Origin: Patescibacteria group bacterium | GTDB taxonomy: Bacteria > Patescibacteriota > Patescibacteriia > Magasanikbacterales > GWA2-37-8 | Length of the DNA stretch: 64,000 nt | Assembly: GCA_041649475.1 (NCBI GenBank) | Contig: JBAZNA010000001.1 | Location: 24,895-88,894, forward strand | Direction: 5' to 3' | Shown here: positions 2,293 to 54,956 of the stretch, in pieces | How the letters are laid out: each line of letters opens with the position of its first letter | How positions within the stretch are numbered: the first letter of the stretch is position 1 | Position numbers and translations under genes: made by a program | Notes under the pieces: generated by a model | Told to the model about the DNA's origin: nothing | Databases searched by the model: none | The model's input: the letters and a program-made list of their open reading frames with translations, nothing else

Positions 2293-2330
2293 AAAAATCT
2301 TCCCGTTTAAATTGGGAAGATTTTTTTGTT
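2293..2330. terminator. Bidirectional rho-independent terminator (AAAAATCTTCCC-gtttaaatt-GGGAAGATTTTTTT)
   Basis: 12-bp perfect stem flanked by an A-run and a T-run. It lies between convergent genes (small ORF + strand, PHP gene - strand). Confidence 0.7.
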
Positions 2331-2365
2331 TATAATTTTATCCATTGCCGCAGGCGGGGCTAAAA

Positions 2366-4127: not shown

Positions 4128-4129
4128 AA

Positions 4130-4804: not shown

Positions 4805-4805
4805 A

Positions 4806-5834: not shown

Positions 5835-5839
5835 ACAAA

Positions 5840-8957: not shown

Positions 8958-9062
<105 letters not shown>

Positions 9063-9124
9063 AGACAATGGTCTTTTTTAAATTTTTAAAACATTGGCAT
9101 TGAACAGTCAACAATGGATATAAG

Positions 9125-12150
<3,026 letters not shown>

Positions 12151-12494
12151 AGTCGCTTCTACCCTATTATTGTTGACTTATTCAATTGTCAATGAACATT
12201 TGCCATGTTCATCCGCTTCCAGAAATTCTCTCACACGTATTACACCAAATTTTGGTATGATTCGTGTTTTAAAATTTCGATTTGAGATTTAAAAAGAACC
12301 GCGGCAAGCGGTCCCTTTAAAATTCAGTAAAACTGAACTTCAGCCGCTTGGATGATCTGAGTAAAATATTGATGTCTTCATATGGTTTAGTTATGTAAGA
12401 AATCATTTACTACCCAGAGGTCCAAGCTGGTACGATTTGTATCCAGAAAGTGTGGACATGGTTCCCTAAAGTTAGGGTTTTCTATCGCTTGAAC

Positions 12495-13497: not shown

Positions 13498-14169
13498 TTA
13501 ATTACGGCTATTTTCTTGTTGTCTCAAAAATTCTTTTGCCCGGCTATACTTTCTTTCCAAACTAGCCGGAAAACGTGAATAGTATAACAAATCTACTAAT
13601 TTTGTCGAGTCCCTCTTGGCATAAGCAAGCACATGTATACCACCACCAACAGTAAAATATCCTTTTATACCATCTTTTTCAGTCATACTTTTTACCCAAA
13701 CCAAAAAAGGTTTACTGGCCGAAACTAAACGAATTCTAAATTGTGGAAGCTTGCTTTCAGGATGCCTAAAAGAATCAATGGTGCCGTCGCCGTCTATACA
13801 CCCTCTTAAAAAATCATAGAAATACTTATCTGGAATATTCAACTCTCCTAAAGTTTTAGATTTCTTTGGCATCAACCCAATACTCAATAAAAATTTATAA
13901 AATAAAACATCCCCAAATTGTATGACATAATAATTTCTATCTTTCCTGCCATAACCGCATTTGCTTTTGATACCAATTTTATTACTCAGCCCCAAATATT
14001 TTTTATACAACTCTATAAAATCTAAATCCTTAGACGTAAAACTAATATGTCTGCCATCTGTAGACAAATTTCCGTCAGTCACAATCAAACCTATAACATA
14101 GGCAAACTCCGGTGACCATTCAATTTTTACTTTTGCGAGTGGTTTCATGTCAGAATCATACCACAGCAA
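13498..14169 (-). CDS. Free-standing double-motif LAGLIDADG homing endonuclease
   Basis: Two LAGLIDADG motifs are read: YVIGLIVTDGNL and FLRGCIDGDGTI, about 100 aa apart. 223 aa. The ORF stop abuts the 5' end of tRNA-Leu. Confidence 0.75.
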   Translation of the reverse strand: MLWYDSDMKPLAKVKIEWSPEFAYVIGLIVTDGNLSTDGRHISFTSKDLDFIELYKKYLGLSNKIGIKSKCGYGRKDRNYYVIQFGDVLFYKFLLSIGLMPKKSKTLGELNIPDKYFYDFLRGCIDGDGTIDSFRHPESKLPQFRIRLVSASKPFLVWVKSMTEKDGIKGYFTVGGGIHVLAYAKRDSTKLVDLLYYSRFPASLERKYSRAKEFLRQQENSRN

Positions 14170-19640: not shown

Positions 19641-20237
19641 TTATGGGCAAGGATTGGCGCAGTTATTCCAAACACTGCCGCCATCTTTTATACATTGATT
19701 TTCCGCATTCACCCTTTGCGGATCTCCGGAATTAGGCAAATTAATGGCGCCGTAACTGGGATCGCATTGATGAGTGGTGGAAAAACAACAGCCCCTGGCC
19801 CCGTTTATTCCCTCAACAGTAGTTTCATCGTAACCGCCAACCACATTGCCTGTCGGCGAAGTGGCGCTATATAAATAATTAGTCACAAAATAGGTAATGC
19901 TGTACGCGGCCAGAACTATCACTAAGCCAATCACACTGGTAGTTAAAATCTTTTTAGCTTTGGTAATCGGCTCTTCATCACCAGCCGCGGTCATCCACAA
20001 AAAGCCGGCATAAACCGTCAGGGCTAAAAAAATCATCCCTACCAGTCCTAAAACTATACTAATAATCATACCAACGGTTTGGGATAGAGTTGTGTCTGTC
20101 ACACCCGCGGTTTGATAACCGCTCTTCTGGGCAATCTGGCTGGTGAGATCATTAATATTTGGGGCGGCCAAAACCGGCCCTGCCATTAAGGCAGAGGCAA
20201 AAATTATTGCTAATAAAATTTTTAAATAAATCTTCAT
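19641..20237 (-). CDS. TrbC/VirB2-like pilin-family protein, paralog 3, with C-terminal Cys-rich extension
   Basis: VYAGFLWMTAAGDEE core, plus a C-terminal domain of about 80 aa with 7 Cys (GCCFSTTHQCDPS...CIKDGGSVWNNCANPCP). Confidence 0.6.
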   Translation of the reverse strand: MKIYLKILLAIIFASALMAGPVLAAPNINDLTSQIAQKSGYQTAGVTDTTLSQTVGMIISIVLGLVGMIFLALTVYAGFLWMTAAGDEEPITKAKKILTTSVIGLVIVLAAYSITYFVTNYLYSATSPTGNVVGGYDETTVEGINGARGCCFSTTHQCDPSYGAINLPNSGDPQRVNAENQCIKDGGSVWNNCANPCP

Positions 20238-20248
20238 GTTACGAATAT

Positions 20249-20641
20249 TTAATTTGCCAAGCCGCTTGGATTTGAATTTGATACACTGCCACCCAATTTG
20301 GTAGTTACAAAATAGGTGATCGCGTAGGCCGACAAAACGATTACCAAACCGATAATACAGGTTTTTAAAGTTGTCTTGGCTGTCTCAATGCGCTTCTCTT
20401 CCCCGGCCGCGGTCATCCACATAACACCGGCGTAAATTGTTAAGCCCAAAAATACTGTACCAACAAGCGACAGAGCCACTTTGATAACATTAGCCACAGA
20501 GGTGGTGAGGTCAGATTGTAAACCGGTTCCACCGGCGGCTTTCTGCAGATTTCCGGTAGCTGCCCCAAGCTGGGCATTGGCAATTAAAGGTATACCGGCG
20601 AGCAAACAAATTGATATGGCGATAAGAAAAAGTTTTTTCAT
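20249..20641 (-). CDS. TrbC/VirB2-like pilin-family protein, paralog 4
   Basis: IYAGVMWMTAAGEEKRIETAK core. Confidence 0.6.
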   Translation of the reverse strand: MKKLFLIAISICLLAGIPLIANAQLGAATGNLQKAAGGTGLQSDLTTSVANVIKVALSLVGTVFLGLTIYAGVMWMTAAGEEKRIETAKTTLKTCIIGLVIVLSAYAITYFVTTKLGGSVSNSNPSGLAN

Positions 20642-20653
20642 ACTAAAAAAATA

Positions 20654-21418
20654 TTAATGACAATCTGCTGAACAATTACCACCTGTATAGTAAGCTTTCC
20701 CCCCAAGGTCAGTACAGGTCTGCTGATCAATCGCCGCACAATAATATCCACTCTGGCCATTCATACAACACTCTCCGGATTCAGGTGCAACCGGCTTATT
20801 GCATGGTAAAATACTCCACGACCCGCCGGTACACTGTTCTTCTGTCATCATACCAATCAAACCACCACTGGCATTACAACAATAGCCATTACCCGCCGGG
20901 GCTTGCCCGCCGGTGGGACATGGTCCCAAGACAAAAACACCACTACCGCCGCAGTCGGCCTGTGAGGCCACATTAACACCGTTTACTCCGGGAAAGGTAC
21001 AGCACCCGGCAGTATCATTTCCCGCCGGAGGGTTGCTTCCTGCGCCTCCTGCGCCCCCCGTAGTTCCGGCCACATTCTTAAACAAGAAGGTGGTAATCGC
21101 ATACGCTCCCAGAACAATCATAAGTCCAATCCCAGCCGCTTCCATTATGCTTTTGGCCGTGTCCACTTTCTTTTCATTTCCCAAAGCCGTCATCCATAAA
21201 ATGCCGGCGTAGAGAATCAACAGGAAAAAAATCACGCCCAAAAGCGACAGGCCCACTCCCACTACATTTCCAACAATAGAAGGGATATCAGTTCCCAATT
21301 TTGAAGTTTTTAAGTCCGACGGCGCGGCCGCCCCCAAACCATAATCATCAGCCAAAACTACCACCGGTATGGTTAGAATGCTTACAAGAGCCAAGACGAT
21401 AAGAAATTTTTTCAACAT
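20654..21418 (-). CDS. TrbC/VirB2-like pilin-family protein, paralog 5, with long Cys/Gly-rich C-terminal domain
   Basis: LYAGILWMTALGNEKK core, followed by about 140 aa with more than 14 Cys, including CC pairs. Confidence 0.6.
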   Translation of the reverse strand: MLKKFLIVLALVSILTIPVVVLADDYGLGAAAPSDLKTSKLGTDIPSIVGNVVGVGLSLLGVIFFLLILYAGILWMTALGNEKKVDTAKSIMEAAGIGLMIVLGAYAITTFLFKNVAGTTGGAGGAGSNPPAGNDTAGCCTFPGVNGVNVASQADCGGSGVFVLGPCPTGGQAPAGNGYCCNASGGLIGMMTEEQCTGGSWSILPCNKPVAPESGECCMNGQSGYYCAAIDQQTCTDLGGKAYYTGGNCSADCH

Positions 21419-21525
21419 ATAGATTATTCAATTGTCATCGCAAACGAACATGTTCACTTGAAATGACAGCAGAACAACTTCCGTCGCAGGGGGTTGCGCG
21501 CGCGAACCCCCTGCGAAGAAGAAGG

Positions 21526-21912
21526 TTATCCGTTAAACTGTGCACCTCCGGAAGTCGCTGAAACCAAACTGTTGATTACGTAAGTGGCCAAAGCGTAGGC
21601 CGCCAATATAATCGCTAAGCCAATTATACCGGAGAAAATCCATTTTTTTGCATCGCTGGTTTTCTCTTCATTACCGCCGGCAGTCATCCAAATGAAACCG
21701 CCAATTAAGATAATAACCACAGCCACGATACCAAGCAGTCCCATCGCGGTTCTAATGATTGACGCGACAGTAACACGGATATCCTGGTGACCTAAACCGG
21801 TTGCCGCTCCATATTGGATACCCAAATCTTGAGCTCCAATCGGAGTTTGAGCAGACACCAACACCGGTACTAATAGCGCTAGCATTCCAAAAATAACTAA
21901 CCATTTTTTCAT
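21526..21912 (-). CDS. TrbC/VirB2-like pilin-family protein, paralog 6
   Basis: GGFIWMTAGGNEEKTSDAKK core. Confidence 0.6.
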   Translation of the reverse strand: MKKWLVIFGMLALLVPVLVSAQTPIGAQDLGIQYGAATGLGHQDIRVTVASIIRTAMGLLGIVAVVIILIGGFIWMTAGGNEEKTSDAKKWIFSGIIGLAIILAAYALATYVINSLVSATSGGAQFNG

Positions 21913-21986
21913 AATCTCACCCCCTTTCCATTGATTGTATTTGTCATATGAAAATGCGTCTAAAAACGGCTATATTATACCACATT

Positions 21987-22439
21987 TTACTGCGGAGCTG
22001 AAGTCAAATATTGAGTGAAGGTGCTTAAGATGAAATAACTGGTGAAAACTAACATCAGCCCGATAACTGCCCAGAGCATTGTTTTTGAACCATTTTTTAC
22101 TCTTTCTTCGTTCCCTGCCGATGTCAGCCACTGAAAACCGCCCCAAACAAACATGAGCAGAGTGAGACCGCCAACCAGGCCCAAAGCGGCTTTAATTATA
22201 ATTTGAATTACTTGCGGCACGCTTGTGCTTCCACTTATATTAGAAAGAGGATTTTGTAAATTACAAACCGTAATCGGGGTTCCGGCTGCGGTTTTTGATT
22301 GAGTACAGCCGGCTGTTTGCGGAGTTGCTGCCGCGGGAGCGGCCAAAGCGATCACGGGAACACTTAAAAAAATAAAAAAGGATGTAACCCCTATAACTAT
22401 TCTAAAAAAAATTCTCATAAAATCACGGGTGTTAATCAT
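21987..22439 (-). CDS. TrbC/VirB2-like pilin-family protein, paralog 7
   Basis: WGGFQWLTSAGNEERVKNGSK core. 4-nt overlap with the next gene. Confidence 0.55.
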   Translation of the reverse strand: MINTRDFMRIFFRIVIGVTSFFIFLSVPVIALAAPAAATPQTAGCTQSKTAAGTPITVCNLQNPLSNISGSTSVPQVIQIIIKAALGLVGGLTLLMFVWGGFQWLTSAGNEERVKNGSKTMLWAVIGLMLVFTSYFILSTFTQYLTSAPQ

Positions 22440-22954
22440 TTAATCGCTTTAATCACAAAATTCACCAAGGTATAACTTAATAACATTACCAAAACCCCCA
22501 AACTTGTCCAAACAATAATTTTTTTGGCCGAGTCAATTTTTTTCTCCTCACCGGCCGCGGTCATCCATAATATTCCAGCCCAGATAAACAAAACCAGGGC
22601 GATTGAACCGATAAAAGCCATCATTAAACTGATAACTCGTCTAATTAAATCAGTGGGGGCTGTAAATTTTGCCGGATTCAATTGACTGGCTGCAGCACTC
22701 CTCAATTGATCGGCTGTTTTACCGCCTGTATTAATACCAGACGAAGCGGCGGGTTGTGCGGTTTTGTCACACGGACCACTTATTGGTTGTTCGCCGCATT
22801 TTGTACAGGCGTCCACTATGGACGCCGGATCTACTTTATTGCCGTCAAACTCCTGACAGGTCTTACAACAATGAAAAATATCCGCTTTAGCCGGAATTAA
22901 AAAAAACAAACTAGCCGCTAGCGCTAATAAATAAATTCTAAAATTAGATTTCAT
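22436..22954 (-). CDS. TrbC/VirB2-like pilin-family protein, paralog 8, with N-terminal Cys-rich domain
   Basis: HCCKTCQEFDG...CTKCGEQPISGPCDK before the IWAGILWMTAAGEEKKIDSAKK core. Confidence 0.6.
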   Translation of the reverse strand: MKSNFRIYLLALAASLFFLIPAKADIFHCCKTCQEFDGNKVDPASIVDACTKCGEQPISGPCDKTAQPAASSGINTGGKTADQLRSAAASQLNPAKFTAPTDLIRRVISLMMAFIGSIALVLFIWAGILWMTAAGEEKKIDSAKKIIVWTSLGVLVMLLSYTLVNFVIKAIK

Positions 22955-22961
22955 ATAAAAT

Positions 22962-23351
22962 TCACTTTACTCCCAAACTCGTGCTCAAAAACTGCACCAG
23001 TATATAGGCGCTAAACACAATAACCAAGCCAACTCCGGCGGCCATTATTATGCTCATGCCCTTTTTTACTTTTTCGGCATTCCCTTGCGATAAAATCAAA
23101 GTAAAGCCGCCATAAATAAAAAACAGTAAAGCCAGCGCGCCGACAATTCCAAAAACATAATTGCCAACAGTGATAAGCAGGGTGACAAAGACACTTACAT
23201 CCGCGCAGTCCCCGCTGGGCGTAGTTTGGTTGCCGCATTTTTGGATCAAATCCGAAACCGGATTGGCGGCTAAGGCAGACCCGGCCCCAAAAAACAACAA
23301 ACTGGCCATGATTGCCACAAAAAATATTTTTTTTAAATTTCGCTCACTCAT
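22962..23351 (-). CDS. Divergent TrbC/VirB2-like pilin-family protein, paralog 9
   Basis: IYGGFTLILSQGNAEKVKK variant core. The start was moved to the internal Met to avoid overlapping the upstream SBP gene. Confidence 0.5.
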   Translation of the reverse strand: MSERNLKKIFFVAIMASLLFFGAGSALAANPVSDLIQKCGNQTTPSGDCADVSVFVTLLITVGNYVFGIVGALALLFFIYGGFTLILSQGNAEKVKKGMSIIMAAGVGLVIVFSAYILVQFLSTSLGVK

Positions 23352-23356
23352 ATCGC

Positions 23357-24745
23357 TTATTGCGCAAAGGTTTGATTCATCTGCGAAGCCGCTCTGTTTA
23401 AAATTTCCTGCTGCCAACCCAGCGGGTCTTTGCTGCTTGGAATTGGTGCAAGCCATTGGTGGGTCATATCGCCCAAGCTCTTTACCGCACCATCATAATT
23501 ACGTCCTTTATACCAGCTATTTGCCACCAGCGCCTGCGAAGCAAACGGGAATAAAACCGGATTATCCAATTGTCCGGAAATATATGTGCGCAAAGCAGAA
23601 GGCCGCGCGGTTGTGTCCAAATAATCTTTAACCGCCTTTGAGTGGGTCAAATAATTCACTAAGTCCCAGGCCTCGTTTTGATGTTTTGATTTTCCGGTAA
23701 CGGTTTGGAGCCAATAACTAGCCGCGTTCACCGGCTGATCCGGGTTAAGCTGAAGCATTGGCAGAACATCAAAATTAAGCTGGGGCGCACGGGCTTTGAT
23801 GGTAGCGTAGTTAAAATTATAGCCAAAATAAAAAGCGAGAGATCCGTTTATGAAACTATCCAAAGCACTGCCCTTATCCTCGTTCCAAGAATAAACATCA
23901 CGGGTGGGATTGGCAAAATCAGTATAAAAATTCATAACGGACATAGCCGGTGACGATCCTTCGTTGACAGACGAGGCATTAAAAACCGCATAACCGTTTT
24001 GATCAACAAAACTCACGTTGCTCTGTTTGAACAAAATATATAACAAATCATCAAACCCGGGAATATTGGCAGCCGTGCCCAGCGCGGCTCCGGATTGTAA
24101 AACCGTGTCGGTCTTTTTATCAATCTTAGTTATCTTTAAGACCGCTTTGCGGAAATCATCCCAAGTTTTTGGCGGCTCGGCCACTCCGGCTTTGTCCAGT
24201 AAATCTTTATTGTAATACAAAGCCATGGTGTCAAAAGAAAGCGGCAATCCGTAAATTTTTCCACCAATCACAACATCGCTTTTAACCGCCTGCACATATT
24301 CTCTGTCTATTTGCGTGATATTCGGCAAAACAACATTAGCAGTATTTATGGTAGTATCTGTACCGCCAATCGCATTTTTTGTTACAGTGACGGTTGTGTC
24401 TTGCACCGAAGCAGGCATCGCCGCCAATTTTGTTTGGTAGACATGCATGTATTTATTTTGAACCGAAATAATATCCGGGCCCTTGTCTTCAGCCAGGGTT
24501 TCAACCAATCTTTGATAAATTTCATCCGGACGAAGCTGTCTTAAATTTATGGTCAAATACGGGCGTTCGGCTTTGAATTTATCTATATTCGCCTGCAGGG
24601 CATCAACATCATCATAAACTGTCCAGTATTCCAGGGTAACCGGCTGGGTTGCCTGTTGTTGAGCTGTAGACAAACCCTTGCAACCAAAACCCCCCAACAG
24701 TAAAACCGGGATTATAACTAAAAAAGGAAGAATTTTTTTAATCAT
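23357..24745 (-). CDS. ABC transporter substrate-binding lipoprotein (sugar-type SBP family 1)
   Basis: Lipobox LLLGGFGC at the N-terminus. 462 aa, with composition typical of SBP_bac_1. Confidence 0.65.
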   Translation of the reverse strand: MIKKILPFLVIIPVLLLGGFGCKGLSTAQQQATQPVTLEYWTVYDDVDALQANIDKFKAERPYLTINLRQLRPDEIYQRLVETLAEDKGPDIISVQNKYMHVYQTKLAAMPASVQDTTVTVTKNAIGGTDTTINTANVVLPNITQIDREYVQAVKSDVVIGGKIYGLPLSFDTMALYYNKDLLDKAGVAEPPKTWDDFRKAVLKITKIDKKTDTVLQSGAALGTAANIPGFDDLLYILFKQSNVSFVDQNGYAVFNASSVNEGSSPAMSVMNFYTDFANPTRDVYSWNEDKGSALDSFINGSLAFYFGYNFNYATIKARAPQLNFDVLPMLQLNPDQPVNAASYWLQTVTGKSKHQNEAWDLVNYLTHSKAVKDYLDTTARPSALRTYISGQLDNPVLFPFASQALVANSWYKGRNYDGAVKSLGDMTHQWLAPIPSSKDPLGWQQEILNRAASQMNQTFAQ

Positions 24746-27642: not shown

Positions 27643-29439
27643 TTAAGAACTGGGTGACATATTAACCAAGGTTGATCCATTTCCGCTTATATCAATGGTG
27701 CCGTTATTGGTTGTGTAACCGCTCCGAGAAACATCCAAAGTATAGGTATCAACCGACAAACCGCTGAAAAAAACCTGACCGGGCGGTGTACAACTGGTGG
27801 AAAATGTAAAAGCTACTTCCGACAGGGTGGGTGTATAAGATGTGCTGGATGTATTTAAAAATACTTTATATCTAAAATAACGGTTATTATCGTTTCCGCT
27901 CCAAATCAAAGTATTAGTAGCTGTATAAAACGTACCGGCCGTGCCATCCGGCCCTTTATAACTCCAACTGCTGGGAGTACTGGTGTTGCTGGAAGCAAAC
28001 TGGAAAGTAACAGGATTGGCGCCGCACTGTGTCTGCGCAGAATACTTAAAAATTATATTATTAAAGTTTACTTGCGTGCCCAAATCAAAAGTAGAGGACT
28101 CCAGCCAGCCGTTATTGGCATAATAAAGTCCGGATTTCTTTAATTTTAAATCACCCGGATAAGAGCTGTAATTTACGGTTCCGCTGTCAGCAAAATATTT
28201 TTTTGGATTGGTAAAATTTATTTGCCCGCTGCCGCTTGACCAATCCGTTTGCCTGGTATAACCATAACCGGTTAAGACAGTGACATCATAACTAGTGCCC
28301 GTAAGTTCTACTGTCGCGTCTGACAAAGGCAACCCGGTGCCGGCATCAACCACATTGACCAAGAGAGAATTTGCAGTATGCGCCTGAAGAATAACTTTGG
28401 CATCCTGGGTCAGACCGGGATTAATAGCTAACGGCAACATCGGCATGGCTCCGGCTACATCATAACTGATTGTGCCGGTAGTGGATAGAAAATAAGTATC
28501 CCATTCAATGTTGGGAAAACTATAATTTCCGGAAGCGTCGGTTGTAAAATTTTTATTAAATTTATAAATATCCGGATCGATGGCAATTTTCTTGGCGCCT
28601 GACATGTTTAACCGAACACTGCCCAGAGCCGCGCAAGCCGTATTAATGGTATGCAGGGTTAAATTACTTAATCTGTCTATGGAAAAACTAATGTCGGTCA
28701 CGTCCTGACTGACCACATTGGCCGGCGGTTTTATGGGTGTGGGCGCGCTGGGGCCGGAGACCACTGTATAATCAGTTGAATAGCCCGGCTTACTGACATT
28801 TATATAATAACTTCGCGTACCGGTGGTTGTGTCTATGATGCGCAAATAGCCATCATTTCCGGTTGTATCATTTACTATAATCAAGGGTGTGCGCGCAGTA
28901 TTGGTCACAGACACATCCGCGCCCGCTACCGGCAAACCATCGGCATCAAAGACCTGGATAAAAAGCGCGCCGTTAACGCTGGCGCCTTCCAACTGTTTGG
29001 GGGCCACAATTGTACTTAAAATAACGGACGCTTGTTGTAAACAATTTTGACAAATAGCCGACATTTCCACCAACTTAAAATCCGCCGGAGACAAATCGTG
29101 GGGTGTGCCGCTCGCAGTGCCATCAAACGGATCATCTATGTTTCTGATGGTTGTAATCAGAGTAAATATCTCTCCATTGCGAACAGTGGTGGTGGTATGA
29201 GGCAAAACTCCGGCCGGCACGCCGCTTATAATACCGACGCTATCATAAGGAAGATTGCGCACGACTTCCAATTGCTCGGCCAAAATACCTGTTTCCAAAA
29301 TGCGCGTGCGCGATTGATACACGATTTTAAAAATCAAAGTGATGCCCCCATAGATGCCGACCGCGAATAATACAAAAATAGCCGTCGCCACGATGACTTC
29401 TATAAGCGTAAAACCTTTTCTGTTAAGAAGGATTTTCAT
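27643..29439 (-). CDS. Large (598 aa) type IV pilin-like protein with canonical prepilin signal (putative tip adhesin)
   Basis: N-terminal RKGFTLIEVIVATAIFVL is the textbook class III signal. A long S/T/N-rich ectodomain follows. Confidence 0.65.
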   Translation of the reverse strand: MKILLNRKGFTLIEVIVATAIFVLFAVGIYGGITLIFKIVYQSRTRILETGILAEQLEVVRNLPYDSVGIISGVPAGVLPHTTTTVRNGEIFTLITTIRNIDDPFDGTASGTPHDLSPADFKLVEMSAICQNCLQQASVILSTIVAPKQLEGASVNGALFIQVFDADGLPVAGADVSVTNTARTPLIIVNDTTGNDGYLRIIDTTTGTRSYYINVSKPGYSTDYTVVSGPSAPTPIKPPANVVSQDVTDISFSIDRLSNLTLHTINTACAALGSVRLNMSGAKKIAIDPDIYKFNKNFTTDASGNYSFPNIEWDTYFLSTTGTISYDVAGAMPMLPLAINPGLTQDAKVILQAHTANSLLVNVVDAGTGLPLSDATVELTGTSYDVTVLTGYGYTRQTDWSSGSGQINFTNPKKYFADSGTVNYSSYPGDLKLKKSGLYYANNGWLESSTFDLGTQVNFNNIIFKYSAQTQCGANPVTFQFASSNTSTPSSWSYKGPDGTAGTFYTATNTLIWSGNDNNRYFRYKVFLNTSSTSYTPTLSEVAFTFSTSCTPPGQVFFSGLSVDTYTLDVSRSGYTTNNGTIDISGNGSTLVNMSPSS

Positions 29440-33760: not shown

Positions 33761-36700
33761 TTATACCGAGACCGGGATGACTTCAAAAGGCGGAGCAGGA
33801 GGAGCTTCGGGAGGTGTTTCTGGAGTTGGAGGAACTTCAGGAGCAGGTGGGGCTTCCGGGGCAGGCGGAACTTCGGGGACAGTTGGAGCCGGGGCGCTTT
33901 CAACAACCGGAGGTGGGCTGGGTGGTGTCTCCGTTACAGTTTCCGGAGTTGGGGTCGGAGTGGTTGGTGTTGGTGTTGGTGTTGGGGCTGGGGTTGGTGT
34001 TTCAACCGGTGTTTCAGTCGGAGTAGGAATGGGAGGAAGTGTTGGGGTTACAGGCGCATTGCTCCTCTTAGCTACGACTATCCAATCAAAGGTTGCGTTG
34101 CTATTTCCATTGTTTAATTCTTTCACCACAAAACCATTAGCACTCTTAGAAGCCACATACACTCCATTTCCTTCACCGGATGTCAAAGTCACGCTGATTT
34201 TAATGGGCTGATTCGGATCAATCACATCCTTAATTGCAGCATCAAAATCAATTTGTACGGTTCCGGACATAAGCTGAGACGAACTGGAAAATACTAATTC
34301 GGAATTGGTGGATTGCATGGCATACAAATCCTGCGAACCATTGGCTGTTTGTACTTTGGCAATTAAATTGCCGTCAGCGTCAATTCTCCACTTCCCGCCT
34401 GCGCCGGTGATTGAAGCCACATTAATAATTGTATTGTTCTGAAGATCAAGGTTGCCGCCGGTATAACTTAATTGCCCGCCGGTTTGTGACACGCCCAAAT
34501 TTTCCGGAGAACTGCTGGGTGATAAATTTATTCCTTGGAGAGAAGCGATCTGGTTTATGCTATTTTGAATTTCAGCAATAGTGTTATCGCGATTATACAT
34601 CCACCCGGTTCTAATTAATGTCATAATTTTTCCGGTGGGTTGATCCATTGGCTCAAGAGCCACACCAATTATACCGACCATCTTATTATTGTTATCTTTT
34701 GTCGGATCATACTTCATGGCGTATCCGGGCATAGAGGCGGAAATTAACAAATCACCGCGTTGTATTGGCCCGTTTTCATTGGAAACTTTGACCGGCACAC
34801 GGCCAACCATGGCCATGACAGCCATATAATCAGTTTTACCGTTGCCTACTATAATAGTCGGGTTGGTAGAAACCACGCCGGCCACAGATTGCTCATATGC
34901 TCCGTTGCTTCTTCGGTATGTATCCGGCGCACTTGGGTCTACCATCAAAACATCCCCCGGTTCAACATTATCATCCACGGCAATATCCACCTTCTCTGCC
35001 AAATCGCCGGGGTTTGTGGATGTTCCTAAAGTGATTGATGGAGCGTAAATATTTCCTTTGGTATTAACATCGCCGTTGGCTGATACAGAAAACACCGGAT
35101 CATTGTTTGAGCGCAGTGAAACAATATAATTATCCGCAGTGGAAGTATTGAAATTGATTGCGTTAAAAGTGAAGGCCTTAGCCGAAGGGGATGAAACTGC
35201 CGCTGATTGAAAAGTGATCTCTTGGGTTGTACTACTTAAGATAAGGGTTGAATTTAACTTCTTTAGGTCTCTATACATTGTCTGCTGGTTGGTGAGCAAG
35301 AATTGAATAGCTGACCCGGCGGCTATACTATTCTGGTCGTGGCCGGTTAAAAGATCCGGAGATTCATCGGCAATAATGCCATATTGCCAGATGGCTTGAT
35401 CGCCATAAGCGCTTACATCATTAATAAAACGATATTGATTAATATTTAAACTGTCCAACATGGATAACAGGTTGCTTCTTTGTGTTTCTGTAATCGGAAC
35501 AATATCCTGCTTAATGGAACGGGAGGACCCATTATGCCATTGGCCGTCAACTGCACTATAGTAACCGCCGCCGTCCATGTTTAAAAGATAACTAAAAGAA
35601 GAGGTGCCGATGCCGACATTGCCGCCCATGATGGCCATTACGTTAATGGCAGACACAGTATAATGGGTTTCGGTATTTCCAATGCCGATACCGATTGAAC
35701 CAGTTCCTGAAACTTCTATATAGTTGCCTAAAGCCATGGCTTTTTCCGCAGACGAGGTCACATGGCTGCCAAAGGCAAAAGAAGTACCGGCTGAAGCAAC
35801 CACAGTATCACCAATAGCTACCGATACATTCCCTGTTGCCGTAAGATGTTTTCCCATTGCTATAGAACTATCACCCGAAGAGACCCCGTCTCCCATGATA
35901 AAGGAAGAGAGACCGCCCGCCACTCCGCCCAACCCAAGAGCAACGGAAGCAGTGCCACTGGCTGTGTTGCCTCCTCCGGCGGCGAACGAGTATAATCCGC
36001 TGGCTTTGGTGCCGGCGCCAAAAGCAGCTGACGAGGTGCCAATATTGGCTTCATCCCAACCAGTGCCATCGCCAAGCGGCAACACTCCCAAAAACATATC
36101 TGCGGTCTTTCCAGCTCTAAACGCCGCTTTGGATGGAATCCACATCATACGAGTACCGGTGCCGGAAACAGGAGTGGCTCCGACTGTGCCAGCGGCTAAA
36201 ATAGCACCGTCTTGAAGAGTAAAAAGTGCTTGAGGAGTTGTTGTTCCGATTCCCACATTCCCACCCATAATAGCCATGACATTGCTTTGATTTAATTCAT
36301 AACGTGGCCATATATTATTCAAACTAATACCAAAAGATCTGTCACCGGTTACATTAATACGAGTTCCCATGGCAGTTGAATACGCGCCACTGGCAACAAC
36401 ATCATCACCAATGGCAATGGCTTGCGTACCACTGGCATATGATTGATAACCGACCGCAAAAGAATTCCCTCCGGTAGCTCTGGATGCAAAACCCAAAGCC
36501 ATAGAGCCATCCCCAGAGGCAATTACACTATCTCCTAACGCAACAGATCGTGCGCCAGAGGCCTTAGCAAAAGATCCCAAAGCGATAGCCGTCGTATTGC
36601 TAGCAATGACATTCCAACCCATAGCCACAGAAGAAGATCCTATCTTTGCATCATCCCAATAAATAGATTCTTCCCCACCCTGATCTTCAAGCTTGCCGGC

Positions 36701-39700
36701 TCTAAATGCCGCTTTGGACGGAACCCACATCATACGGGTACCGAGGCCGGAAGCGGGGGTGTTGCCAATGGTGCCGGAAGCGATGACGGCGCCATTGATA
36801 ATACCAAAAGTATTTGCGTTAGATAAGGTGCCATTATCTGAATTGCCTAAACCGATACCGAAGGAATTTGCACCGGAAACTGTCATATACCTGCCCATAG
36901 CAATAGAATACTGGGCAGTAGATGTTACTGAAGTTCCAATAGCCACAGCAAACGACGTCAGTGCCCTGGCGTCACCACCGATAGCTACCGAAGCGGTACC
37001 ACTTGCTGTGGCAGCACCAAAAGCTGAAGATCCGTCTCCTGTGGCGCTGGAGCCGCCCAAAGCTGTAGCACTGGTGCCGCTGGCATAAGAACCAAAACCC
37101 ATCGCAACAGATAAAGGCCCCCCAGAAAAATTATTCATACCTATTGCAACAGAACCAAGGGCGGTGGCTTTATTATTAACCCCCAAAGCCATGGAGTATT
37201 CACCAATATTTGCATCATCCCATTCTGTTCCACCATATGGGTCGGCTCCATAGGTATCAACACCTACCGCGCCAGCTCTAAACGCCGCTTTACTTGGTAT
37301 CCACATCATACGAGTGCCGGGACCGGAACCGGGAGTGTTGCCGGTGGTGCCGGAGGCGATCATGGCACCATTGATTATTCCAAAAGTATTTGCAGTAGAT
37401 AAAACACCATTGTCAGATGACCCCAAACCGATACCGAAGGAATTTGCACCAGAAACTGTCAAATATTTGCCCATTACAAAAGAATTTCCGCCCGAACTTG
37501 TTACAAACTCACCAATAGCAACAGACCTGCTTCCCAAAGCTCTTACTGTTTCACCCATAGCAATGGCTTTAGCCGCACTGGCAAATGCATTATTACCAAG
37601 AGCGATAGCTCCGTCGCCTTGAGCTTTATTGCCTGATCCCATAGCCACTGACGCGGTGCCGGTGGATATATTGCTGGCGCCCATGGCAATGGAGAATATA
37701 CCAGCTGAAATATTTTCAACACCTGAAGCGAATGTATATGGACCGCTGGCTTCAACATTATACCCCAAAGCCATAGAATAAGAACCGATACTTGCCTCAT
37801 CCCATTCTGTTGAAGAAGCATACCCGGCTCTAAAAGCCGCCTTGCTCGGTATCCACATCAGACGAGTGCCGGCGCCGGAAATCGGAGTCCCTTGGGCACC
37901 TGTGCCACTGGTTGAACTGACAGCCAGAATAGCGCCATCTAAAATTGTTAACGCCGCTTGAGGTGTGGTGGTGCCAATACCAACATTCCCACCCATGATG
38001 GCCATGACATTGCTGGCTGAAATAATTCTATCTGTTGTATCCAAGCCAATACCAAACGACTGACTTCCTGTAACATTTATATGTGATCCCAACGCGATTG
38101 CGCCTGAAGCAGTACTTGTAATATGCCCACCCATGGCGATTCCACCAGAAGCAAAGGCATGTGCGTTTTCACCCATCGCAAAGGAATTAGTACCCAATGC
38201 TGTTGACCAATTTCCTAAAGCAACAGCACCGTTTCCTGCTGCCCAACTGCCAACACCGGCGGCAAAGGCAGCAGTGCCACTAGCGATGGTATCTATACCA
38301 AAAGCAACTGAACCTAAACCAATTTTTGCATCATCCCAAGCATCCACACCGGCATATAGACCCTGGATTGATCCGGCTCTAAAAGCCGCCTTGCTCGGTA
38401 TCCACATCATGCGAGTGCCGGCGCCGGAAATCGGAGTCCCTTGGGCACCTGTGCCACTGGTTGAACTGACAGCCAGAATAGCGCCGTCAACTATTGTTAA
38501 TCCCGCCAAAGGCGAACTGGTATTTATTCCTACATTTCCATTTGCCAAAACGCGCAGCATGCTGGAGCCGGAGGAGGAGGCGATGTCAAAAAATGGACTG
38601 CTGGTAACCGAACCGGATATTGAGAATAGAGCTGTTGGAGTAGTTGTGCCAACTCCCACTCTGCCGGTTGTTCCTTCACCGGCCGATGGGCCTACAAATA
38701 ATGTGGGAACTGTAGAATAAAAGCCCACAACCAAAGACCTGTCAGTGGAGTTGACAAGTAAACCACTACCTAGACCCAGGCCGTTACCAATAATAATGGA
38801 ACTAAAGGCACTTGAAGAAACATACTGACCAAGGGCAAAGGAATTATCACCGCTGGCAGTGGAGTATTGCCCCAACGCGGTTGAATAGTTACCACTGGCA
38901 ACAGATCGAGAACCCATCGCGGTTGAAGTATAGCCGCTCGCAACGGTATTACCACCCATCGCGACTGACCGGTCCCCGATTAACGCATCATCCCATTGTG
39001 TCCCATCTACAATACCCGCCCTAAACGCCGCTTTACTTGGTATCCACATCATACGGGTGCCGCCGCCGGAAATTGGAGTGTCACCGACTGAACCTGTGGC
39101 CAGGATGGCACCATCAACTATTGTAAACTTTGCCAAAGGCGAAATTGTGTTTACGCCTAAAGCCCCCAAAGTGCCTGTTGATGAAATTCTAAAATTGGCC
39201 ACTTGATCCGCGGATGATTGATTTTGTATATAACTGTCTGAACCGGATGAAGATGCGAATCCTAAACTGCTTGTATTCACCCATTGCCCGCGGCCGCTGC
39301 CGTTAGACATATAAATATTGCCGCTATATCCGGAAGTGGCTATAAAATACTGTCCGTAATCAATATTATTTATTCTGTAAGTCCCGGTGGTATTAATATC
39401 ACCGGCTACTGATAATTTCCAGGCAGGAGAGGTGGTGCCTATTCCAACCGAACCGCCAAAGTACGACGGCGTGTTTGTTGCCGAAATTGACAAAGCCCCT
39501 TGTGACAAAATACCACCATAACCAACCGTCAAAGATGTCCCTATATCAACTATTCCTTTGGTGATTATTTCGTTTTGCACTGCAAGTTTTCCAACTTCGG
39601 CCGAGTGAGCAAATAATGAACCGACTTCCGTTCCATAAAGATCGGTGATAAAAAATAAACCAGAACTATCATTGACAGAAAATACGTAATTCCCAACCAC

Positions 39701-41272
39701 CTTGACCCCATAATCTCCCGCATACACATTACCAACCTCACTCATTACTCCCGGATTTGAAATATCAATTATATCTATAATTCCCAAATAAGTTGATACA
39801 AACGCATAATTTCCGGAAATGTCTAAGTCAAACGGAGCATTGACCAGGGCAACCGTGGATGATACCACCGGTGTAATTGGATTGTGTATATCCACAGATA
39901 TTAAGGTATTATTCCATGTACCCCCTAAATATGCATACCCTCCGGAAACATAAATAGGATAGGCCCCTGAACCTGCCGGCAGGTCTGTAGTGCTTTTCTG
40001 TACTGGTAAATTTGGATTAGAAATATCTACTACCATCAAATGACTAGTATGTGTCAAATAAGCGTACTTACCGGAAACAAATATTTCCCCGGGGCCATAG
40101 TCCAATGTTACTGAACTTACTACTACCGGGTTATATGGATTGGAGATATCAATTACATACATTTTTGTATCATCTGTATCAGCGACGTATAAATATTTAC
40201 CCGACACAAAAATTGAGTCCGCAGAACTGCTTGATCCTAATGATGTTGTGCTAATCTGAACCGGAGATGCTGGTTTGGTTACATCAACAACAACTAATTT
40301 ATTTGTCATACCAGCGCCCAAATAAGCATAATTACCGGCAACAAATATTGAACTAACACGCCCTATGCTTAACAGTAATGTGGCAACCTTGATTGGAGCG
40401 CTTGGTCTATTTATGTCTATTACAGACAAGTATGATGGATCGCCTCTATCCGAAACATAGGCATATCGGCCAGACACATATAATTCAGAGGCCTGGGATT
40501 GTGCGAAGACAAACCCTACGGTGTTTATACCCGAATCGGGATGTATGGGATTATAAATTTTACCCAATACGGTCAGTTTTCTACTTGTCGCTGTTGTGCC
40601 AATTCCCACCTGTCCTCCGGCTGTCGCAAAAGTCGCCCCATAATTAAAAGTGGAAGTATTGTTTGAGATTACAGTCAGTTTGTTTGTGACGGTAGTTGTT
40701 GAAATCGTCGTACTGTTAAAATTAAAATTTCCGTTGACATCCGACACTGGAATGTAAGTTGACGAAGAAACAGTGGCCGAAGCAACTCCGTCCAAATACA
40801 TTGAATTAAAAGAATATGGTGAGGCCGTGATTTGTTTTCTGGGGGTTAGGGTTTGGGCGCCGATTCTTACTTCCAAAAATACTGACGCATTATTTTTAAA
40901 AATATTTGGATCAAGGGTATTGGTACCAGTGTCGCCGAGATTGATTGAGAACAAACCTGAAGTTGGTGTAACAGCGATTGAGGTGGGTGTACCAACCGTG
41001 CCTCCGGCTGTATAGAGTGCCGTACCTCCGGACGCGGAATCATACAAAATAAAATACATGTCCTGACTGGTTGTTGCCGCTAACCCGTTCACCAATAATT
41101 TTCCTTGATAAGTAATTATGCTGGGTGGGGTGGCAGACCGCGCATTTAAACCATAGGCAATGAAAAACAAAATACACCCAAATATCAAAAAAATGGGAAG
41201 AATTCTTTTGCAGTTCTGCCACTTCCTCTTTAACTCCTGCATATCTTCTTTGTTACTTCTATAGTATAGCAC
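33761..41272 (-). CDS. Giant (2503 aa) secreted/cell-surface fibre protein with LVIVD-like beta-propeller repeats, Hep_Hag/YadA-head-like repeats, an internal S74-type intramolecular-chaperone-like domain and a Pro/Thr-rich C-terminus
   Basis: Single uninterrupted ORF. N-terminal TM/signal [19 protein letters not shown]. Six recurrences of [16 protein letters not shown] about 190 aa apart. [10 protein letters not shown]...[13 protein letters not shown] block. TPTPTPTPT...PPAPE tail. Confidence 0.8.
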
Positions 41273-50969: not shown

Positions 50970-52700
50970 ATGCTCCCATCCACCGTTTTAAAAGATGTCA
51001 TAAAAAAATTCAGTTTGGCGCCTGCCTCCGCCATTCGTTCAGCCCAAGGCAAGGCCACCCAAGCGCACAAAAACCTTGAAGATATACTAATAAACGAGGG
51101 CATAATCAATGAAGCGGACCTCTATGAAAAAGCGGCGCAATATTTGGATATCCCGTTTATCAGCTTAAAAGGCCGGGAAATAAAAAAAGAAATCTTGAAC
51201 CTTATCCCCGGTCCGGTTGCCGGCACGCACCAGGTGGTTGCTTTTGATAAAGAAAAAGACGGGCTAAAATTGGCCATGACCGACCCTACCGACATCCAAA
51301 CCATAGAATTCTTGCATAGAAAAACCGGCCTGGAACCAAAAATATACATCACTCCTCCCGGCGATCTAAAAGAGGCCTTGCACCGATACCATGCCGAACT
51401 TGAAGAAGACCTGCGCGTGATCCAAGATGCTACCGGCGGCGGTGAAAGCGGTAAGGATTTAAAGAAAGCGGCCGAAGAAGTCCCTACCATAAACATCGTT
51501 AACAGTATTTTAGAACACGCCGTCTATGAAGGCGCGTCCGATATTCACATTGAACCGGCGGAAAAAGAAATCTCCGTCCGCTACCGGATAGACGGCATTT
51601 TAAAACAAATAATGACCCTGCCAAAAAATGTGCAAAACGGCATAATCGCCAGAGTCAAGATATTATCAAATCTAAAAATTGACGAGCACATGATCCCTCA
51701 AGACGGCCGGTTTAAGATTCAAATTCAGGATGAAAAACTGGCTTTCCGTATTTCCATAATTCCGGTTTATGACGGTGAAAAAATCGTCATGCGCTTGCTC
51801 CACGAAGGCGCAAAACCGCTAAGTTTAGACCAACTTGGCTTCCTGGAAAAACAAAGAACCATTATTGAGGCGGCCATTAAAAAGCCGCATGGCATGATTC
51901 TGGTTACCGGTCCAACCGGATCAGGTAAAACTACCACTCTATATTCAATCCTGGGCATCTTAAATCAACCGGGCGTTAATATTTTAACTATTGAAGACCC
52001 AATTGAGTATCGTCTCCCCGGAGTCAATCAAAGCCAGATCAATCCGAAAGTCGGTTTCACTTTTGCCTCCGGTCTGCGCGCCTTCCTGCGCCAAGACCCG
52101 AATATCATCATGGTCGGAGAAATCCGCGACCAGGAAACCGCTGAAATCGCCATCCACGCGGCCATGACCGGCCACCTGGTGCTTTCCACCTTGCACACCA
52201 ATGACGCTCCAACCACCGTTCCCCGCCTCATTGATATGGGCGTGCCGCCATTTTTGGTCGCTTACACCACCAACATCATCATGGCCCAGCGCTTGGTGCG
52301 CAAGATCTGCACCTACTGCAAAAAAGAATTCACGCTGGACAAGGCCTCGGCCGTTGAATTGGGAAAAGTGTTTGATGTAAAAAAGATGTCAACTCTTTTT
52401 AAAGACAACATCACCGGCAAAGACGCGGAGTCCTCAAATGACTTGGAAAAAATCAAATTTTATACCGGCGCCGGCTGCCACCGTTGCGGCCAAAGCGGTT
52501 TTAAAGGACGCGTCGGCATTTATGAAATTTTAGAAATTGACGAAGAGCTGATAAAAATGATTAATTCACACGCCACCGCGGAAGAAATAAAAAATTACGC
52601 CAGAGATAAAGGTATGATTACCATGCTTGAAGACGGATTAATTAAGGCAAAAACAGGCGTCACCACCATCAGTGAAATACTGCGGGTAACCAAAGAATAA
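50970..52700 (+). CDS. pilB: Type IV pilus assembly ATPase PilB (GspE family)
   Basis: Walker A GPTGSGKTTT, Asp box, His box, and a tetracysteine CxxC...CxxC motif. N-terminal GSPII_E_N-like domain. Confidence 0.9.
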   Translation: MLPSTVLKDVIKKFSLAPASAIRSAQGKATQAHKNLEDILINEGIINEADLYEKAAQYLDIPFISLKGREIKKEILNLIPGPVAGTHQVVAFDKEKDGLKLAMTDPTDIQTIEFLHRKTGLEPKIYITPPGDLKEALHRYHAELEEDLRVIQDATGGGESGKDLKKAAEEVPTINIVNSILEHAVYEGASDIHIEPAEKEISVRYRIDGILKQIMTLPKNVQNGIIARVKILSNLKIDEHMIPQDGRFKIQIQDEKLAFRISIIPVYDGEKIVMRLLHEGAKPLSLDQLGFLEKQRTIIEAAIKKPHGMILVTGPTGSGKTTTLYSILGILNQPGVNILTIEDPIEYRLPGVNQSQINPKVGFTFASGLRAFLRQDPNIIMVGEIRDQETAEIAIHAAMTGHLVLSTLHTNDAPTTVPRLIDMGVPPFLVAYTTNIIMAQRLVRKICTYCKKEFTLDKASAVELGKVFDVKKMSTLFKDNITGKDAESSNDLEKIKFYTGAGCHRCGQSGFKGRVGIYEILEIDEELIKMINSHATAEEIKNYARDKGMITMLEDGLIKAKTGVTTISEILRVTKE

Positions 52701-52716
52701 TTCACTCATTTCGATT

Positions 52717-53832
52717 ATGGCCGGAAAAATTAAAAAACCAAAAAAACTTTCCCCGTTTGAACAAAAATTGAATAAATGGGTCAGTGACCATCTTTCCAGA
52801 GTGCCAATCGTGGATAGAATTTTGTTTATCAGCCACATGAAAACCATGGTTAAAGCCGGGCTATCTCTAATTGACGCTTTAAAAATCTTAAGTGAAGAAA
52901 TAGGCAACAAAAAATTAAAAACGATTATCAGTGAAATCAAAGACGGGGTTGAAAAAGGCAAGCAACTAAGCGAGGTTTTGGCACAGTATCCAAAAGTTTT
53001 TCCGCATATTTATGTCAGTATGATAGAAGCCGGAGAAACCGCCGGCAAACTGGAAATGGCTTTAGACCAGGTGTCAACACAGATGAAAAAAAACCATGAA
53101 TTGTCTTCAAAAATTATGGGAGCCATGATGTACCCGGCCGTAATTGTCGCGGCTATGGTTGGCATCAGTATTGAGGTGGTATTTTTTATTCTGCCGAAAA
53201 TGATGGACATGTTTAAAGAATTTGACGCGCAGCTGCCGCTCGCAACCAGAATCTTAATCGCCTTTACCGACTTTACCATAAAATATGGCGTCTGGGTGCT
53301 GATAGGCCTGGTGCTTTTTATAATCCTTGCCATCTGGTTAATGAAAAAACCAAAAATTAAAAGGGTTATTCATGCCATGAATTTAAAACTTCCGGTCGCC
53401 GGCCCGATTATCAAAAAAATAAATTTGGCGCGTTTTACCTTAACTTTAAATTCTTTGCTGACCAGCACAATTCCAATTATTGACGCGGTGCGCATCTGCG
53501 CCGAAGTGCTTGGCAATGTAATTTACAGAGAAAATCTTTTGTATGTTTCCGAATCCCTGAAAAAAGGCGAAACCTTATCTGAAATTCTGGCGCGATTTCC
53601 CAAAACCTTTCCGCCAATGGTCACAGAAATGATTATGGTCGGCGAACGGTCCGGCCAAACCGAAGATATGCTTAAAGAACTGGCCGAATACTATGGAAAC
53701 GAAGTTGACACAACCATGAAAAATTTCACCACTATAATTGAACCGGTGATCATCCTGATTCTCGGCTTGGCTGTGGCTGGAATTGCTGTGGCGGTTATCA
53801 TGCCAATGTATTCATTGGCCCAAAATATTTAA
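52717..53832 (+). CDS. pilC: Type IV pilus platform protein PilC (GspF family)
   Basis: Two T2SSF repeats. Three TM segments. 371 aa. Confidence 0.85.
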   Translation: MAGKIKKPKKLSPFEQKLNKWVSDHLSRVPIVDRILFISHMKTMVKAGLSLIDALKILSEEIGNKKLKTIISEIKDGVEKGKQLSEVLAQYPKVFPHIYVSMIEAGETAGKLEMALDQVSTQMKKNHELSSKIMGAMMYPAVIVAAMVGISIEVVFFILPKMMDMFKEFDAQLPLATRILIAFTDFTIKYGVWVLIGLVLFIILAIWLMKKPKIKRVIHAMNLKLPVAGPIIKKINLARFTLTLNSLLTSTIPIIDAVRICAEVLGNVIYRENLLYVSESLKKGETLSEILARFPKTFPPMVTEMIMVGERSGQTEDMLKELAEYYGNEVDTTMKNFTTIIEPVIILILGLAVAGIAVAVIMPMYSLAQNI

Positions 53833-53846
53833 AAAAGATTAAGTTT

Positions 53847-54956
53847 ATGTTGCTCCGTAACCCCTTCGCCGGTGCCTTTGGAATAAATATCGGAGATCTG
53901 TCCATAAAACTGGTCCAAATTTTGCCTTGCCCGTTTTATAAAAGATGCGGGTATGTTTTAAAAGAAATCCGTTCCGCCAGCATCCCCCCGGGGCTGATTG
54001 TTGACGGTGAGATTCAACAACCCGAACCGGTCCGACAAAAATTGTTGTTTCTGCTCGGCCGTGGCGACCATAAATATAAACCCATAAAATCAACCTGGGT
54101 GGTGGCCAGTTTGCCCGAAACAAAAACCTTTTTAAAGCTGATTGAAGTTGAAATTGACGGCACTGATTTATCTTCGGTGGATATTGCCTATCAAGCCAAA
54201 AAGCATCTGCCTTTTGAGTTGGAAGAAACCTACTTGGATTGGCAAATAGTTAATACCGATACAAAAGAAAATACGGCTCAAATTTTAATTGGAGCCGTGC
54301 CAAAAGTGATTGCCGATTCCTACACGTTCCTGCTTGAAAGTGCGGGCCTTAATCCGATTGCTTTAGAAATAGAAGCCATTTCCATAGCCCGATCAATGAT
54401 TACGGAAGATAAAGATTATACCGGTGAAGCCAGAGCGCTTTTAGATCTTGGCGGCACCAGATCAAGTTTGCTTATATACGACAACAAAAGCATACAATTT
54501 TCAACGACCTTAAAATTTTCAGGCGAACTGGTAACTTCAGCCGTAGAATTGGGCTTAAAACTTGAACGCCATCAAGCCGAGGTGTTAAAGATTAATAACG
54601 GCCTGGCTTTTGACCAAAAAAATCCAAAATATCTGCCGATTGTTTCTAAGTTGGCTGAAAATTTAATAGAAGAAATCAAAACAAATTTTCTTTTTTATAA
54701 AGAACATTTCAAAAATCCGAATAAAATCAACCATATTACCATGTGCGGCGGGATGAGCAATTGGAAAGGAATAGATAACCTGGTCTCGCGAAAATTAAAA
54801 ATAGCGACTCACCCTGGCCACCCTTGGAAAAACCTGTTCAACCGGGGGTTATACAGTTTTGATCAGGAAAAAAGCTTGGGCTTCGCCTCTTCCATAGGCC
54901 TGGCCCTAAAAGCGGCTAAAAATCCATTTGAAGACGGAACCAAAACCATAAGATAA
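53847..54956 (+). CDS. pilM: Type IV pilus assembly protein PilM (actin-like ATPase fold)
   Basis: Follows pilC. LDLGGTRSSLLIYD phosphate-1-like motif. Confidence 0.75.
   Translation: MLLRNPFAGAFGINIGDLSIKLVQILPCPFYKRCGYVLKEIRSASIPPGLIVDGEIQQPEPVRQKLLFLLGRGDHKYKPIKSTWVVASLPETKTFLKLIEVEIDGTDLSSVDIAYQAKKHLPFELEETYLDWQIVNTDTKENTAQILIGAVPKVIADSYTFLLESAGLNPIALEIEAISIARSMITEDKDYTGEARALLDLGGTRSSLLIYDNKSIQFSTTLKFSGELVTSAVELGLKLERHQAEVLKINNGLAFDQKNPKYLPIVSKLAENLIEEIKTNFLFYKEHFKNPNKINHITMCGGMSNWKGIDNLVSRKLKIATHPGHPWKNLFNRGLYSFDQEKSLGFASSIGLALKAAKNPFEDGTKTIR

Follow-up and report, generated by a model that had tools for sequence, protein, structure and literature searches.

A near-identical 113-nucleotide tract shared by two YadA-head modules of a giant Patescibacteria gene: a very probable trace of recent intragenic gene conversion

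How do two neighboring protein repeats that differ at most of their length come to share a tract of almost identical DNA? This question is raised by a giant gene on a stretch of 64,000 nucleotides (nt) from a Patescibacteria group bacterium (GTDB lineage Bacteria; Patescibacteriota; Patescibacteriia; Magasanikbacterales; GWA2-37-8; NCBI GenBank assembly GCA_041649475.1, contig JBAZNA010000001.1, positions 24,895 to 88,894 of the forward strand). This whole stretch is the DNA that was analyzed and is called the window below; all positions are counted from its first letter. The YadA_head material of the giant protein is organized as six modules, M1 to M6, of 183-224 residues each (Table 1). An earlier note on this DNA had described two repeats of about 110 nt near positions 37827 and 38377 as almost identical and had attributed them to recent duplication or gene conversion. 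The repeats are as close as claimed (108 of 110 bases between 37827-37936 and 38376-38485), and they do lie inside one giant gene, where they form part of the protein repeats. The gene runs on the minus strand, and the repeat sequence quoted in the note is therefore antisense to the coding sequence. As to their origin, our analysis points strongly to gene conversion between M2 and M3 and away from duplication.

In its full extent the tract covers the starts of M2 and M3; the two copies lie exactly 549 nt apart (3 x 183, or 183 codons) and agree at 111 of 113 bases. At the neighboring offsets of 548, 550 and 551 nt, identity is 24-26%. A self-comparison of the gene by blastn returned 37824-37951 against 38373-38500 (128 nt, 95.3% identity), which is by far the strongest internal match. 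The core tract contains two differences, side by side at 37861 and 37862, and these leave exact runs of 37 and 74 nt. The corresponding codons are CGC ATG in M2 and CGT CTG in M3, and CGT ATG in the other four modules; one difference is thus an A/C change in a Met/Leu codon and the other a T/C change in the third position of an Arg codon. The edges of the tract are sharp: 8 of the 9 bases before 37824 differ between the copies, and identity drops past 37936. The four further copies of lower identity that the note had mentioned were also recovered, at 36110-36157, 36695-36742, 37271-37318 and 39014-39061, with 79-87% identity over 57-76 nt. The spacing between successive copies is 585, 576, 552, 549 and 642 nt. 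A 117-mer of the repeat has no other occurrence within the 64-kb window.

The extent of this similarity can be judged against the divergence of the modules as a whole. Pairwise amino acid identity among the six modules is 42-55%, and at positions where two modules agree in a degenerate amino acid, the codon is identical in only about 40% of cases. The modules are therefore old duplicates with saturated synonymous sites; Tandem Repeats Finder, for which they are too diverged, did not report them and returned short repeats only. Within the tract, by contrast, M2 and M3 have identical codons at 33 of 36 degenerate positions, versus 17 of 42 outside it. In the other 14 module pairs, 38-64% of the degenerate codons of the same segment are identical (mean 0.49), and the chance of obtaining 33 of 36 given a background of 0.40-0.49 is P = 6e-8 to 2e-10. 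Furthermore, M2 and M3 share an insertion of five codons (15 nt) that is common to these two modules only. A Sawyer-type permutation test on the six-module alignment gave a run of 31 concordant polymorphic sites for M2 and M3, where the maximum in 10,000 permutations was 19 (global p < 1e-4). Outside the tract, M2 and M3 show 39% amino acid identity and have different nearest relatives within the gene, namely M5 and M6 for M2 (49% and 47%) and M4 for M3 (52%). Because the run is significant, the edges are sharp, the synonymous sites are identical, an insertion is shared and the tract conflicts with its flanks, we conclude that the 113-nt identity is very probably a recent short-tract intragenic gene conversion (non-reciprocal homologous recombination) and not a recent duplication. 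The GC content of the tract is alike in all six modules and gives no signal of GC-biased conversion.

A simple course of events would lead to this pattern. The module-start segment (...DGAILA...) is the most conserved part of each module, and because it encodes this part, the DNA of all six module starts is already 65-80% identical, versus about 50% elsewhere in the modules. This local similarity would permit strand invasion between paralogous copies, and one module start, including the 15-nt insertion, would then have been pasted over the other. One substitution per copy after the conversion (CGC in M2 and CTG in M3) would be the simplest later history. The event was probably not the only one of its kind. 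M3 and M4 share a run of 18 concordant polymorphic sites (global p = 7e-4), and blastn aligns the region across the M3-M4 boundary with that across the M4-M5 boundary. These alignments point to an older conversion tract that links M3 and M4, and since this second tract is detectable, conversion has evidently occurred more than once in the gene. In repetitive adhesin genes such conversion is nothing out of the ordinary, and the signature seen here, that of concerted evolution through gene conversion, is a textbook one. The finding adds a further instance of a well-known phenomenon from a little-studied lineage.

Other explanations for the tract have to be weighed against conversion. A recent tandem duplication of a whole module, after which diversifying selection drove the bodies apart very rapidly but left the N-terminal motif conserved, would suit the adjacency of the copies, which lie exactly one 549-nt module apart, and repeats of surface proteins may indeed evolve quickly. 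We nevertheless consider it very unlikely. The synonymous sites beyond the tract are as saturated as in any other module pair, the bodies of M2 and M3 differ not only in their nearest paralogue but also in the number of head repeats, and the edge of identity is abrupt and not graded. The duplication half of the earlier attribution is consequently given up on the low identity of the amino acids and codons outside the tract and on the different nearest paralogues, while the conversion half is borne out by the tract statistics. An artifact of assembly or polishing, in which mis-mapped reads or a chimeric path created a false identity or hid the true copy number, is equally improbable in our estimation. 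Repetitive adhesin genes are known trouble spots: the length of badA of Bartonella henselae was under-called in an early assembly, at 9,249 bp versus 11,922 bp with long reads (PMC8859334). The exact runs in the present gene, however, are shorter than a 141-mer and than typical reads, the 7.5-kb open reading frame (ORF) is intact, and the flanks of the tract, at about 50% identity, are too diverged to collapse. Moreover, a MEGAHIT contig at ENA, k141_2181346 (104,548 bp; locus L001), agrees with the window at all 11,482 positions compared, and the same protein is found both in this k141 contig and in a contig of 963,177 bp from a metagenome-assembled genome (MAG). The note's warning that this is a classic place for short-read mis-assembly is therefore weak here; mis-assembly is unlikely, and the repeat region can be trusted as assembled.

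Selection at the nucleotide level, which would keep the tract as an RNA element, a regulatory site, a recombinase site or a template/variable pair of a diversity-generating retroelement (DGR), has a still smaller probability. It would agree with the identity of the synonymous sites and with the 10-nt palindrome CCGGCGCCGG inside the tract. Against this, folding z-scores range from -0.8 to +0.4 on both strands, the sequence is common to only two of the six copies, the mismatches are not adenine-specific, both copies are in one ORF, Rfam has no match in the gene, an exact 42-nt scan of JGI metagenome contigs gave no further instance of the nucleotide sequence, and neither a reverse transcriptase nor an integrase or transposase is present among the scanned ORFs. 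The least credible account is a coincidence in which the identity arose without recombination, from codon bias and strong purifying selection acting on the peptide. The peptide motif is invariant in the six modules and the DNA of the patch is somewhat more alike for all pairs, as this account would have it, but the 14 other pairs are under equal constraint and stay at 38-64% identical degenerate codons, from which 33 of 36 has a probability of 6e-8, and the shared 15-nt insertion is left without account. Chance of this kind is rejected on the statistics.

Two specific candidates were rejected as descriptions of the tract. An embedded RNA element was discarded on the finding that the tract and its paralogous segments fold without excess stability relative to shuffled sequences and that Rfam is empty inside the gene. 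A DGR or other mobile element was discarded on the finding that Pfam detects no reverse transcriptase, integrase or transposase in 39 of the 53 window ORFs of at least 150 amino acids and that the mismatches do not follow the pattern of template and variable repeats.

Several points weigh against recent conversion between M2 and M3 or limit what can be said of it. The recombination event is deduced from the sequence pattern, and the tract could have been copied in either direction, since no outgroup above 63% identity was found. A single genome of the lineage is present in databases. The two assemblies may share the same reads, and they are independent as computations, not necessarily as samples. 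Finally, the strong protein constraint on the segment raises DNA identity by itself, although it does not account for the identical synonymous sites or the shared insertion. If conversion is accepted, the tract shows that intragenic homologous recombination is active in the gene for a giant surface protein of a Patescibacteria lineage with a reduced genome (~0.96 Mb), and giant surface proteins are prime candidates for host attachment.

The earlier note had also proposed that the repeats provide a substrate for expansion and contraction, and this proposal holds in a formal sense. Recombination between the two copies would produce a 549-nt deletion or duplication that stays in frame and introduces no stop codons, giving proteins of 2,320 or 2,686 amino acids. 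The two copies would thus be a formally adequate in-frame substrate for the loss or gain of one 183-codon module. In Escherichia coli, RecA-dependent exchange is generally taken to require at least some 25-30 nt of perfect identity to be efficient, and the run of 74 nt is well above this value. Nearby direct repeats can also recombine through RecA-independent slippage. We infer that the tract may now serve as a substrate for the loss or gain of one module of 183 residues, and that size variation of the fiber is plausible. The tract marks one in-frame site, with a unit of 183 codons, at which module number could change; if population data gave alleles with five, six and seven modules, the fiber would be size-variable in a manner comparable to Bartonella BadA.

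To place the tract in the protein, we consider the modules themselves. Every module starts with the invariant sequence GTR[ML]MW[IV]PSKAAFRAG, which is followed by W-D. In an AlphaFold2 (AF2) model, the body of M2 is a beta-roll with a predicted local distance difference test score (pLDDT) above 90. The converted start segment has a pLDDT below 50 in the same model, and the connectors between modules are not modeled confidently in the monomer. The best Foldseek matches of the M2 model are the YadA-like heads of BoaA (3s6l), BpaC (7o23), EibD and YadA, and sequence matches in PDB are BpaC (1e-09), YadA (2e-04) and UspA1. Modules of this type also occur in Flavobacteriales, Sediminibacterium, Saprospiraceae, Pseudobdellovibrionaceae, Paceibacterota, Saccharibacteria and one gammaproteobacterial MAG. 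The module-opening motif itself (39014-39061 and five paralogous sites) is found from Bacteroidota to Patescibacteria, yet lies outside the coverage of any Pfam model. Possibly it represents a cap or connector, so far undescribed, in YadA-like heads other than those of autotransporters.

The relatives of the giant protein are distant. No relative above 63% protein identity was present in a database of 5.8 billion proteins, and a scan of JGI metagenome contigs for an exact 42-nt part of the tract gave 0 matches. Protein-guided scans returned 15 loci at 32-55% identity in genome contigs and, in metagenome contigs, 32 loci whose identity did not exceed 49%; neither set holds a strain-level relative, and the genome collection, like the metagenome one, gave no DNA match. 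By motif count, the distant relatives hold 0-5 modules (0 in protein P0003, 1 in P0035, 2 in P0069, 4 in P0024, and 5 each in P0011 and P0051), and their domain order is shuffled. These differences in module number among relatives reflect long-term evolution and not strain-level variation.

Patches of raised DNA identity are found in the relatives as well. The Patescibacteria locus L003 encodes the same three Pfam families and has two modules; its strongest internal DNA match (166 nt, 85.5%) coincides exactly with the module opening. In L020 the module-opening segment is 86% identical over 110 nt. Loci L002, L019, L029 and L031 contain in-frame patches of 245-357 nt at 86-93% identity. Those of L002 (JAPLWQ010000001.1, a Magasanikbacteria MAG; 12133-12390, 14888-15145 and 28373-28643) are linkers of 245-259 nt at 89-93%, shared within and between two neighboring giant genes, which encode P0011 (3,310 amino acids) and P0051 (4,094 amino acids). 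This sharing suggests conversion between paralogues. In L019, a linker of 300 nt is present in five copies at 86-93% identity. To judge from these patches, patchy homogenization of diverged repeats is usual in the gene family, and the module opening is a recurrent site of it because it encodes the most conserved peptide. The best inter-module DNA identity lies at the same start segment in three independent genes, those of the window, L003 and L020. A stronger proposal, that the module-start segment (…DGxxxA…GTP.SG.GTR[ML]MW[IY]P[SR]KAAFRAG) is a recurrent recombination junction in Patescibacteria giant fiber genes, is in our view doubtful. Under this proposal the DNA would be repeatedly homogenized, and YadA-head modules would be exchanged, dropped and added both inside single genes and among paralogues; if true, it would imply a combinatorial, size-variable attachment fiber for episymbionts. 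Published work on giant proteins of the candidate phyla radiation (CPR), and on conversion inside genes for bacterial surface proteins, offered little that is directly relevant. Separately, in Sediminibacterium (L010, OZ257253.1, positions 1-6117) at least 7 tandem repeats of 876 nt with ~88-91% identity lie upstream of a module of the same type, and this array is much more recombination-prone than the repeats of the window.

The likeness to known systems is partial. We infer that the protein is an extracellular trimeric fiber or adhesin of an episymbiotic CPR bacterium. Its heads are YadA-like left-handed beta-rolls according to Pfam, PDB and Foldseek, as in trimeric autotransporters. However, Pfam scans of the whole protein and of its C-terminal 529 amino acids gave no YadA_anchor or beta-barrel translocator, and the NCBIfam models for trimeric autotransporter adhesins score 48-90 bits versus cutoffs of 750-3000. 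Because the beta-barrel anchor is absent and these scores are far below the cutoffs, the window protein is not a trimeric autotransporter (type Vc), despite its YadA-type heads. In group B streptococcal alpha C/Rib and in Moraxella UspA1/UspA2, non-reciprocal recombination homogenizes repeats and so enables in-frame loss and gain. Whole repeats are near-identical in alpha C/Rib, whereas only 113 of 549 nt are homogenized here and the remainder is anciently diverged. The closest documented parallel is badA of B. henselae, which, like vomp, resembles the present gene in being a very long fiber gene with repeated modules and YadA-like head repeats. In badA, recombination among repeated domains reshuffles, duplicates or deletes segments, and fiber length tracks gene length, as established with long reads (PMC8859334). 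BadA differs from the window protein in its C-terminal beta-barrel anchor, its coiled-coil neck and stalk and its outer-membrane setting; the window protein, in turn, repeats whole head modules, contains internal Peptidase_S74 and LVIVD regions and belongs to a Patescibacteria genome. Length variation is documented among strains for badA, whereas the window locus is known from one genome.

Phage fibers such as the K1F endosialidase and the GA-1 neck appendage offer another comparison, in that the S74 domain of the giant protein scores above the cutoff and offers a putative Ser/Lys dyad in SSRSIK. In contrast to phage tail fibers, the S74 domain here is internal, with ~530 residues after it and not at the C-terminal end, from which it is released once trimers have formed, as in S74 fibers, and the context is chromosomal and not that of a prophage. 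Putative Ser1916 and Lys1921 are placed within SSRSIK at the expected spacing of the dyad. In the comparison with the GA-1 neck appendage (3gud), the segment KQDIVPI/K1921 is weakly aligned to K6 (E = 1). Cleavage by the domain at Ser1916, should it take place, would sever the C-terminal ~590 residues from the fiber.

Overall, the giant ORF encodes, in order, a putative signal peptide, LVIVD repeats, six heads, Peptidase_S74, a C-terminal region conserved in relatives and, last, a tail rich in Pro. The NCBI annotation starts the gene at an ATG at 41242, which gives 2,493 amino acids, and names the product 'MAG: tail fiber domain-containing protein [Patescibacteria group bacterium]' (P0001, a 100% match). 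The exact protein is a singleton on record, carried by the 963,177-bp MAG contig. The basic and hydrophobic N-terminus looks like a Sec signal peptide when judged against the AxA-type sites of relatives. Pfam matches on the ORF are YadA_head (2.1e-44, 10 stretches), LVIVD (5.5e-36) and Peptidase_S74 (5e-06), and the LVIVD region probably forms a beta-propeller. No Pfam family was detected in the scan of the C-terminal 529 amino acids, and a PDB sequence search with the C-terminal 619 amino acids gave no match. The AF2 model of the S74 domain and C-terminal region has a mean pLDDT of 46.5 and is unusable. The C-terminal region is nevertheless conserved in P0011, P0003, P0035, P0024 and P0091. 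Tandem Repeats Finder located three short tandem repeats in the Pro/Thr-rich tail, at 33798-34001.

Table 1. Features of the giant gene, listed from the 5' to the 3' end of its coding strand, followed by the homogenized tracts (window positions; aa, amino acids)
Feature	Position	Strand	Basis
Giant ORF, 2,503 aa, GTG start	33761..41272	minus	ORF list, translation
LVIVD region, six repeats	39623..40489 (approximate bounds)	minus	Pfam, 6 stretches, 6.5e-40 on N-terminal 713 aa
M1, aa 714-927, YadA-head type	38492..39133	minus	module motif at 39014-39061
M2, aa 928-1110, 183 aa	37943..38491	minus	AF2 beta-roll body; Foldseek YadA-like heads
M3, aa 1111-1294	37391..37942	minus	PDB sequence matches to BpaC, YadA, UspA1
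M4, aa 1295-1486	36815..37390	minus	module alignment
M5, aa 1487-1681	36230..36814	minus	module alignment
M6, aa 1682-1905	35558..36229	minus	module alignment
Peptidase_S74 (intramolecular chaperone), aa 1916-1972	35357..35527	minus	Pfam 27.2 bits, cutoff 22
C-terminal region without family (aa 1973-2400, ~430 residues), then Pro/Thr-rich tail	33764..35356	minus	Pfam negative; kept in relatives
Copy A of the very probable conversion tract, start of M3	37824..37936	minus	111/113 versus copy B; codon alignment
Copy B of the very probable conversion tract, start of M2; same peptide, M for L	38373..38485	minus	111/113 versus copy A
Older mosaic tract, copy 1, across the M3-M4 boundary	37271..37485	minus	blastn, 215 nt, 80% versus 36695-36909
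Older mosaic tract, copy 2, across the M4-M5 boundary	36695..36909	minus	blastn, repeat search

The plus strand of the module region carries two antisense ORFs, at 38133-38720 (195 amino acids) and 35724-36215 (163 amino acids). They are most likely by-products, on the opposite strand, of repeat coding rich in Gly, Ala and Ser.

The gene is flanked by a class II ribonucleotide reductase and RuvB, which is a chromosomal setting, and the window also contains tRNAs, a 23S-5S rRNA pair and type IV pilus genes. The exact RuvB protein has no entry on record, owing to a difference in the start codon called. The pilus-related genes are located at 19641-23456, 27643-29439 and 50970-54956 and comprise four T4SS_pilin ORFs, an N_methyl (pilin-like) protein of 598 amino acids with CarboxypepD_reg, and PilB-, PilC- and PilM-like genes. 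Genes for surface appendages are thus dense around the giant fiber gene within the 64 kb. Within 8958-12125 and 13498-14169, the 23S and 5S rRNA genes stand together with no 16S gene adjacent, the upstream neighbor of the 23S gene is arginine decarboxylase, and a free-standing ORF with a LAGLIDADG domain adjoins a tRNA-Leu gene.

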